Below the pieces are notes generated by a model, which saw nothing but the letters and a program-made list of their open reading frames with translations, did no database searches and was not told the DNA's origin. From the IMG/VR virus record IMGVR_UViG_2663762849_000013: a stretch of DNA of 5,076 nt; one strand, 5' to 3'. The translations under genes were made by a program, and so were the position numbers. Below are positions 3,963 to 4,174 of the stretch, piece after piece. Source of the DNA: a virus (lineage: Duplodnaviria > Heunggongvirae > Uroviricota > Caudoviricetes). Every line of letters starts with the position of its first letter. The first letter of the stretch is position 1.

Positions 3963-4131
3963 TATCGCGTCCTCAACAATGAATTTTGTGATGCAGTGCC
4001 TGGTGCCTCCAGGTGACGTTAACCAGTTAACAATTAACGCCGGATACAGAGAATCCACCCATAACACTGTTTTTGGTTTTAACTGTTCCGCGTGCGCTTA
4101 GCCGCATTCACCGCATCACAAAATTCACTTT

Positions 4132-4174
4132 AAAAAGGGCGGCAGAGCAGTCACGGAGTAAAACTGATACCGCC
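4132..4174 (-). terminator. Rho-independent terminator hairpin forming the 3' end of DicF
   Basis: On the minus-strand RNA, GGCGG...CUGCUCUGCCGCC forms a GC-rich stem and is followed by UUUUU (plus-strand AAAAA at 4132..4136). Confidence 0.55.

Follow-up and report, generated by a model that had tools for sequence, protein, structure and literature searches.

How a prophage can control the division of its host is classically illustrated by the dicBF operon, and between its small RNA DicF and the gene dicB lies a spacer that carries no annotation in the RefSeq records examined. What this spacer might do is the question raised by a 5,076-nt stretch of DNA from a Caudoviricetes virus (IMG/VR record IMGVR_UViG_2663762849_000013), referred to here as the window, which is a segment of a Qin-like lambdoid prophage with its genes on the minus strand. 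In an initial annotation the spacer was described as 174 nt of non-coding DNA (3963-4136), given a dicB start at 3962. These limits were confirmed, as the full-length Rfam match to DicF (RF00039, 76.7 bits; 4137-4188, minus strand) stops at 4137, the end of the DicF terminator hairpin, and the Pfam DicB domain (PF05358, 125.5 bits) covers residues 1-62 of the 62-aa protein encoded at 3774-3962 on the minus strand. The dicB start codon, ATG 3962-3960, agrees with the RefSeq annotation of a strain identical over the 261-nt query described below. We have found that the spacer RNA has a conserved fold, and the explanation that we consider probable is that it is a sister of the prophage small RNA (sRNA) STnc100, carried in the dicB operon and made into an RNase III processing cassette by a long closing stalk.

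Structure of the spacer RNA

Read on the minus strand, as are all the RNA features that follow, the spacer has a minimum free energy (MFE) of -68.4 kcal/mol, compared with -45.7 +/- 3.9 kcal/mol for shuffled sequences (z = -5.8), and none of the 200 shuffles folded as low. The core alone, a predicted RNA of about 130 nt (3988-4117, its ends being those that a staggered RNase III cut would leave), gives -46.9 kcal/mol and is composed of five helices arranged round one junction together with a pseudoknot. Our covariance model R1 had a single match in the window, at 3988-4119 on the minus strand, with 102.8 bits.

The inner closing helix, P1, pairs 4117-4109 (5' strand GAUGCGGUG) with 3998-3990 (3' strand CACUGCAUC) and shows covariation. 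Between P1 and P2 lie the junction nucleotides AAU (4106-4108), part of a GGUGAAU motif and at least 90% conserved in alignment A2 (below), followed by hairpin P2 (4090-4105), in which GCGGC and GC-A-CGC, with a bulged A at 4093, enclose the loop UAAGC and 98.7% of cells are paired. P3 (4042-4089) is a closing helix of 3 bp, GGA (4089-4087) with UCC (4044-4042), two of its three pairs having changed on both sides; it encloses the 5' strand of the pseudoknot, CAGUUAA (4079-4085), and an insert (4078-4045) of variable length and sequence. Hairpin P4 (4015-4041) consists of the 5' arm GGCGUUAAUU (4041-4032), the loop GUUAACU (4031-4025) and the 3' arm GGUUAACGUC (4024-4015), and its loop plus the first G of the 3' arm form the 3' strand of the pseudoknot, UUAACUG (4024-4030). 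A single A (4014) separates P4 from hairpin P5 (3999-4013; CCUGG, loop AGGCA, CCAGG), which abuts the 3' strand of P1 directly. The near-invariant nucleotides are those of the GGUGAAU junction, the U..GC of the P2 loop, and the P5 loop AGGCA with its GAGG. With five arms and a 9-bp P1 abutting a 5-bp P5, the element resembles tRNA and tmRNA, and tRNA genes are found nearby in P7, D6 and late leaders; the likeness is architectural only, and a tRNA or tmRNA gene was rejected since ARAGORN returned neither in the window.

The fold accounts for the motifs that had first drawn attention to the spacer, namely two GTTAAC palindromes 2 bp apart followed by AATTAAC, and an inverted repeat CCTGG-N5-CCAGG. 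All of these are real and non-random, although the coordinates originally assigned were 1-2 nt off: the GTTAAC copies lie at 4018-4023 and 4026-4031 and not within 4017-4030, AATTAAC is present at 4032-4038, and CCTGG-N5-CCAGG occupies 3999-4013 and not about 4001-4015. Neither GTTAAC-NN-GTTAAC (4018-4031) nor CCTGG-N5-CCAGG was contained in any of 200 dinucleotide-preserving shuffles; single GTTAAC hexamers are unremarkable (3 in the window against 0.86 expected, with 11/200 shuffles reaching 3). In the RNA, the arms of P4 are supplied by AATTAAC (5') and by the GTTAAC at 4018-4023 (3'), its loop and the pseudoknot 3' strand by the GTTAAC at 4026-4031, and CCUGG/CCAGG is P5 with its conserved AGGCA loop. 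The palindromes arise incidentally, from a hairpin and a pseudoknot that belong to a conserved RNA of five helices.

Conservation and covariation

A 261-nt query composed of DicF, the spacer and the start of dicB was searched in 5,426 complete E. coli genomes and was at least 80% covered in 3,979 of them (about 73%). In genomes with any match, the number of matching places was 2 at the median and 9 at most, and some of these places lie upstream of kilR in Rac-like prophages. Copies of the spacer core that are accompanied by neither dicF nor dicB, with 70-87% identity, precede kil in Shigella phage 75/02 Stx, kilR in Rac-SA53, and terB/tciA in the ban operon of P7 and D6; a Klebsiella phage has the core as well. 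Scanning IMG/VR with the shared hairpin motif TCACCNGGAGGCACNNGGC gave at least 120 contigs, and scanning one genome per species with the 5' motif GTGAATGCGGCTNNGCGCNCGNG gave copies in Escherichia, Shigella, Citrobacter, Klebsiella, Raoultella, Enterobacter, Lelliottia, Buttiauxella, Pantoea, Phlomobacter and Arsenophonus. Phage lambda had no match to the model at E up to 1. Pattern matches outside the Enterobacterales (Nocardia, Bacteroidales and others) were set aside as chance, as the model gave them no score or only 21-25 bits.

In alignment A2, which contains 108 distinct sequences, copies like that of the window (dicB-type) and copies resembling STnc100 (STnc100-type) were aligned jointly and 30 pairs were scored. 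It was found that 93.4% of cells are paired, compared with 36-43% when the 3' partners were slid by 1-3 columns, and that the covariation score is 0.517, compared with 0.05-0.12 after sliding and 0.18 after shuffling, with 0/500 shuffles reaching 0.517. Changes on both sides are seen in 19 of the 30 pairs, and covariation occurs in all five helices. P5 is 100% paired in A2, a value partly forced by the search pattern used for collection. Alignment A3, whose 47 distinct rows were gathered independently via the 5' motif and aligned with model R1, and which hence leans toward the structure, has 92.3% of cells paired as opposed to 29-48% when slid, and a covariation score of 0.472. Pairs with both-side changes number 6/8 in A2 and 8/8 in A3 for P4, and 4/5 in A3 for P5, where the AGGCA loop is kept in nearly all members with occasional substitutions. 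The pseudoknot co-varies across both the dicB-type and the STnc100-type groups; a helix scoring at least 5 is kept in 94% of the 108 sequences, with more than 25 different co-varying sequence pairs, among them CAGUUAA/UUAACUG, CCAGUC/GACUGG, AUCAGCA/UGCUGAU, CUGGUGU/ACACCGG and UGCCAGGUCG/UGACCUGGCA, and in other genera AAGGUUG/CAACCUU, ACUGACA/UGUCAGU and ACAGUC/GACUGU.

The initial annotation had pointed to RNA folding and to an alignment of related spacers as ways to judge the site; the stable predicted fold and the covariation in both alignments bear out its description of the spacer as a structured non-coding RNA. Its suggestion that the GTTAAC copies are tandem protein-binding palindromes fared otherwise, since one is a P4 arm that covaries and the other a P4 loop engaged in the pseudoknot. 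Only the loop copy (4026-4031) is kept in relatives, whereas the arm copy (4018-4023) varies, being replaced by GUUGCA, GCUGCC, GCUGGU and others, with the 5' arm changing to compensate. Furthermore, the P4 pair at A2 columns 107/132 is G.U in 81/108 sequences; as G.U pairs are meaningful only in minus-strand RNA, the structure is that of a strand-specific RNA, and a protein site in double-stranded DNA is excluded.

Relationship to STnc100 and PasD

An Rfam scan with E up to 10 returned only DicF, STnc100 and two chance matches, with no riboswitch, ribozyme or C4. The STnc100 match (RF02076) extends from 4139 to 3930 on the minus strand, covers the full length of the model (1-206) and has 34.7 bits with E = 5.8e-6; other dicB-type loci are likewise without an RF02076 match at the gathering cutoff, and STnc100-type loci gathered with the shared P5 motif have 57-147 bits. 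Like STnc100, a prophage sRNA of Gammaproteobacteria, the window copy has P1-P5 in the same order, the GGUGAAU junction, a P5 of the form CC.GG-AGGCA-CC.GG abutting the P1 3' strand, and a consensus secondary structure that is also found in the Rfam structure line, and both STnc100 and the dicB-type copies reside in lambdoid prophages. Unlike STnc100-type members, in which P2 is CCCCC/GG-A-GGG, the window copy has a P2 of GCGGC/GC-A-CGC, is without the linker-plus-terminator 3' module and a promoter of its own, and lies in the early-left operon upstream of an open reading frame (ORF) and not between Q and the lysis genes, and P1 is extended into a stalk of 20-28 bp. Judged by sequence and consensus structure, the dicB-type copies appear to be a divergent, previously unrecognised sister subfamily of STnc100 (RF02076) and PasD.

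STnc100 and its structural relatives PasD1 and PasD2 of enteropathogenic E. coli have been described as prophage sRNAs (Zhu, Shabalina, Storz; bioRxiv 10.64898/2026.05.13.724894), and PasD1/2 were shown to be northern-validated, Hfq-dependent sRNAs with many RIL-seq partners (PMC8550237). The Hfq-dependent PasD differs from the dicB-type in being stand-alone and located beside Q and lpxR, and its kinship with the dicB-type is drawn from the published relation of PasD to STnc100. The bioRxiv study makes no mention of dicB or DicF, in the STnc100/PasD papers examined we found no link to the DicF-dicB spacer, and searches for a RIL-seq-style name of the spacer gave none.

The STnc100-type copies have Q (PF03589) on one side and the holin and endolysin genes on the other, some of them coming directly after a TTGACA-N17-TAAATT promoter, and most are followed by a linker and a Rho-independent terminator, often with a second hairpin that resembles a terminator for convergent transcription; no regulated gene comes after these terminators. 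STnc100-type elements also occur in tandem, 3-5 to an array and repeating about every 253 nt (loci L102:4377-5462 and 8377-8518, L029:370-991 and L049:1723-2344), lying between a Q-like gene and holin/lysozyme genes, with most units having their own terminator and with isrI and tRNA genes interspersed. After the dicB-type copies, an ORF preceded by a Shine-Dalgarno (SD) sequence is found within about 130 nt in 94/105 cases, the first typically 45-80 nt past P5, and encodes DicB, Kil, TerB/TciA, a 283-aa regulator-like protein, or one of many small hydrophobic or unknown proteins. In the window no terminator-like site was detected between the element and dicB and no minus-strand promoter-like site in the spacer, and dicB begins 27 nt past the P1 3' strand, which is not the layout of a stand-alone sRNA gene. 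An internal promoter in the spacer was rejected, the sole match being a sigma-70-like consensus on the plus strand (TTAACA-16-GAGAAT, 4027-4054), antisense to the element and at chance frequency in the region.

The closing stalk and RNase III

The dominant feature of the spacer, overlooked in the initial annotation, is the inverted repeat that encloses the module. A repeat finder located it at 3980-3998/4109-4127 (19 nt, 95% complementary, 110 nt apart), and in the MFE pair table it extends to a stalk of 28 bp with one bulged G, in which 4136-4109 pairs with 3970-3998 and the rest of the spacer is enclosed. The 5' arm (4109-4136) begins with the DicF terminator's U-tract (4136-4132) and continues as outer stalk (4131-4118) into the inner P1, while the 3' arm (3970-3998) passes from the inner P1 through the outer stalk (3989-3978) and the bulged G (3977) to UUGAGGA at the stalk bottom (3970-3976), which pairs weakly with the U-tract. 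The dicB Shine-Dalgarno, read from the sequence as GAGGA (3970-3974) and lying 7 nt 5' of the ATG, is within this weak bottom. The stalk includes 21 contiguous pairs (4129-4109/3978-3998) with a duplex energy of -32.5 kcal/mol, and its 28 bp with a single bulge are what is expected of an RNase III substrate, that is, near-continuous double-stranded RNA of at least about two helical turns.

A stalk of at least 18 bp is present in 32/58 distinct dicB-type copies (median 20) and in 0/79 STnc100-type copies (median 7). Complementarity is preserved in at least 15 distinct stalk sequences, ACAGACCUUGCAAUGCAGUG/CACUGCAUUGCAAGGUCUGU being one example, and in Klebsiella, Citrobacter, Lelliottia and Buttiauxella copies the stalk sequences are unrelated and still complementary. 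K-12 Qin has the same stalk but for one C>U change, by which the pair is kept as G.U. The stalk duplex, with its compensatory changes, is under selection.

In addition to the 53-nt terminated DicF, a 72-nt form produced by RNase III processing of the full-length operon mRNA is on record, according to two reviews (PMC5069750, PMC9438474, citing Faubladier 1990). Counting 72 nt from the DicF 5' end (4188/4189) leads to about 4118/4117, a point 19 nt past the 53-nt end that falls midway along the 5' arm and is 9-10 bp away from the junction, and the cut giving this 3' end would fall within 4116-4119 on the minus strand (+/- 2 nt). With the reported 72-nt end located in the stalk, the link originally drawn between the spacer and RNase III processing of the dicB operon stands, although the processing determinant is less likely to be the GTTAAC copies, as had been considered, than the long outer stalk. 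We predict that the long stalk is most likely the RNase III processing determinant.

Proposed explanation

According to the explanation that we regard as probable, the module is carried within the polycistronic dicB-operon transcript with its P1 lengthened to about 28 bp, such that the stalk starts at the DicF terminator U-tract and stops shortly before the ribosome-binding site of dicB. Where transcription has continued past the DicF terminator, RNase III would cleave the stalk of the transcript, giving rise to the 72-nt DicF, and a staggered cut of both arms might set free the core as a stable RNA of about 130 nt (4117-3988), leaving a dicB mRNA beginning near 3987, with a leader of about 25 nt and its Shine-Dalgarno unpaired. 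As such a cassette, the element would keep the sRNA, the structured core and the toxic ORF apart. The lower-stalk duplex left after the cut has only about -10 kcal/mol, and the Shine-Dalgarno (3974-3970) would therefore be free. The same value led us to reject a role of the DicF-72 tail as a lasting antisense on the cleaved dicB leader. Sequestration of the Shine-Dalgarno as a conserved mechanism also seems unlikely, as its pairing in the window is weak (3 G.U pairs) and in kilR-type copies the SD lies beyond the stalk, unpaired. The released core may act as a trans-acting sRNA, as a decoy for a host factor, or as a cis sensor for the downstream toxic gene.

Several points weigh against this explanation. 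The RF02076 match lies below the curated gathering cutoff of 47 bits. The position of the 72-nt end is taken from the two secondary citations named above. A 2023 study has RNase III making the 5' end of a 190-nt DicF and, in the section examined, does not discuss a cut in the spacer, which it neither confirms nor contradicts; its primer extension gave no internal promoter. The P1-family (P7, D6) and Arsenophonus copies are without the long stalk, and RNase III excision thus cannot be the general route. In the strain of the window, an IS1 inserted in ydfB separates ydfC-DicF-dicB from the dicB promoter, and the copy may therefore be poorly transcribed. Finally, it is by inference that we have the 3' arm cleaved, the core released and stable, and the translation of dicB affected.

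Alternative explanations

It is possible, if doubtful, that the core is purely a trans-acting, Hfq-dependent base-pairing sRNA, for which the stalk serves as a maturation signal and the place upstream of dicB is incidental. The homology to STnc100 and to the Hfq-dependent PasD RNAs is in keeping with this, as is the confinement of the stalk to polycistronic copies. However, the excised core would be without the linker and the terminator/poly-U 3' module of the STnc100-type genes, a module that is usually the Hfq-binding part, and it is difficult to regard as chance a position immediately before an ORF start that is shared by most dicB-type copies, in many genera and with ORFs that are unrelated.

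Somewhat unlikely, in our opinion, is a cis leader that is kept on the dicB mRNA, in which the core would control the translation or stability of a toxic gene, either by sensing temperature, a ligand or a protein, or by forming a protective or ribosome-loading 5' structure. The SD-led ORFs after the dicB-type copies, several of which encode toxic or small membrane proteins (DicB, Kil, TerB/TciA, hydrophobic peptides), would suit a leader, and the near-invariant junction and loop nucleotides are as in ligand- or protein-binding RNAs; in the window, moreover, the Shine-Dalgarno is part of the stalk bottom. Nonetheless, STnc100-type copies of the same fold are followed by Rho-independent terminators, and those copies are thus not leaders; the pairing of the SD is weak in the window and absent in the kilR-type; from a near-perfect stalk of 20-28 bp one would expect both arms to be cut and the core to come away; and no known riboswitch family was matched at E up to 10.

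With similar reserve we suggest that the core might be a specific protein- or ligand-binding module, serving as sponge, decoy or sensor of some host factor and representing a phage riboregulator of a new class. Temperate phages of Enterobacterales may use such a module in three settings, namely late-leader sRNA genes, P1-like tRNA operons, and RNase III-excised cassettes before toxic early genes, and the features that may point to it are the five-way junction with its pseudoknot, the near-invariant nucleotides and a tRNA-like stacking of P1 on P5. If this were true, the dicB setting would couple expression of a cell-division inhibitor to a host factor.

That the element is an evolutionary relic, a decayed STnc100-like gene without function today save as a duplex for RNase III, seems improbable. 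The score under the Rfam cutoff, the defective state of the Qin prophage, the IS1 that cuts the copy off from its promoter, and truncated copies upstream of dicB (L081, L126) could be read as decay. The helices and the pseudoknot are kept, however, with compensatory changes, in Escherichia, Klebsiella, Citrobacter, Buttiauxella, Pantoea and Arsenophonus and in functional phages such as P7, D6 and Stx phages, and the spacer is present in nearly three quarters of the E. coli genomes.

Action at the DNA level, with the palindromes as an operator or recombination site or with an internal dicB promoter, has next to no probability: the motifs are indeed non-random and a promoter upstream of dicB was proposed in one older study, as mentioned in the 2023 study, but only the loop copy is conserved, the other changes with the opposite arm, the G.U pair noted above prevails, the spacer has no minus-strand promoter-like site, and no internal promoter came from the primer extension of the 2023 study. 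Equally negligible is a coding spacer, either as a 26-aa ORF (4107-4027) or as an N-terminal extension of DicB from GTG 4067 (97 aa), for although both frames are open in the window and AUG 4107 is conserved, this AUG belongs to the conserved junction/P2 of the RNA, is without a usable Shine-Dalgarno and is buried in P1, the 26-aa ORF ranges from 11 to 80 aa with unrelated C-termini across 49 variants, the DicB domain is complete in the 62-aa form, and an extension from the GTG is excluded by the presence of this upstream sequence before kilR and tciA as well, with spacing and frame differing between the genes (35, 40, 43 nt).

Distribution and variants

About 20 diverged dicB-type loci were found in the insect symbiont Candidatus Arsenophonus triatominarum (L133-L202; also in Ca. 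Phlomobacter), where P5 is CCAAG-AGGCA-CUUGG, the pseudoknot is ACAGUC/GACUGU, and in most copies about 45 nt separate the end of P5 from a downstream ORF of 57-85 aa (MRLDNPRIV..., phrog_30265). Phage D6 carries its first copy upstream of a tciA homologue and a second, weaker one (L004:2677-2795, 42.9 bits) downstream of a tciB homologue. In the two truncated loci named above (L081:1424-1602 and L126:4386-4508), only the 3' part of the element, from the P3 3' strand through P4 and P5 to the P1 3' strand, is present directly upstream of dicB and is joined to unrelated sequence, implying recombination breakpoints inside the element, which may mark the boundary of a mosaic module.

In four loci on E. 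coli and Shigella chromosomes (L132, L200, L203, L205), which have the pseudoknot AAGGUUG/CAACCUU, the dicB-type element is followed within about 25 nt by a hairpin and U-tract like the DicF terminator (GUCUUGGCGGUACCAG...). The order of modules is thus the reverse of that in Qin and Rac, with the element first and the sRNA-like terminator second. In Rac-SA53 the same DicF-like hairpin, below the Rfam DicF cutoff, precedes the element upstream of kilR. Two matches came from unexpected hosts: the 254-kb Aeromonas phage AP1 (MT713136.1, 249906-250152; H61) has 247 bp that are 99% identical to E. coli Qin DicF-dicB, and Actinobacillus phage vB_Apl-pPE4 (PP818812.1; H65) has an 87% match to the element. 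These records may reflect contamination, chimeric assembly or real transfer.

Neighboring features of the locus

The Pfam domains found in the window are those of an integrase (Arm-binding domain), an excisionase, an exonuclease, DUF1482 (YdfD), DicB and the InsA of IS1. The IS1 occupies 4842-5076 on the plus strand, with its left end GGTGATGCTGCC starting at 4842 and with both the N-terminal and C-terminal domains of InsA; it is inserted inside ydfB, of which about 20 C-terminal codons remain (4841-4779). In the prophage exonuclease gene an in-frame TAG (2939-2941, minus strand) replaces Trp185. The protein of strain 2013C-4991 has 823 aa, whereas here two ORFs, of 184 and 632 aa, are left, and the gene is probably a pseudogene. 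The region 5' of DicF (4189-4345) folds no better than shuffles (z = -0.05), and a second processing helix there was not supported.

Comparison with known systems

The findings add to the phage sRNA family a subfamily with a different genomic logic, one that the Rfam STnc100 model misses at its cutoff. In the operon of the window, the coincidence of the stalk with the reported RNase III cut would offer a physical basis for separating DicF, the core and the dicB mRNA, and the stalk, the pseudoknot and the P5 loop are concrete targets for mutations whose effect can be read on the expression of the toxic early genes dicB and kil.

In lambdoid phages, lambda 6S RNA and StxS are short constitutive transcripts of the late promoter. 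Like these, STnc100-type relatives are found directly after a promoter between Q and the holin/endolysin genes, many with terminators behind them, whereas the window copy is located in the early-left operon and not in a late leader. In the immI locus of phages P1 and P7, the order is c4 antisense RNA - icd - ant, and c4 is processed from the operon transcript just upstream of a cell-division inhibitor gene. The dicB locus likewise has a structured RNA upstream of a cell-division inhibitor, and P7 and D6 have a dicB-type element too, located in their ban operon. It differs from c4 in that no Rfam C4 match was obtained at E up to 10, in that the locus of the P1-family copies is another, and in that nothing but the stalk, itself weak after cutting (-10 kcal/mol), is complementary to the region where ribosomes bind on dicB. 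RNase III stalks are also known to flank structured RNAs in rRNA precursors, in phage T7 early mRNA and in the lambda N leader. In comparison with these, second-arm cleavage and release of the core are predictions here; like them, the element consists of a long duplex built around an RNA within a polycistronic transcript, with the reported DicF 3' end mapping into its 5' arm.

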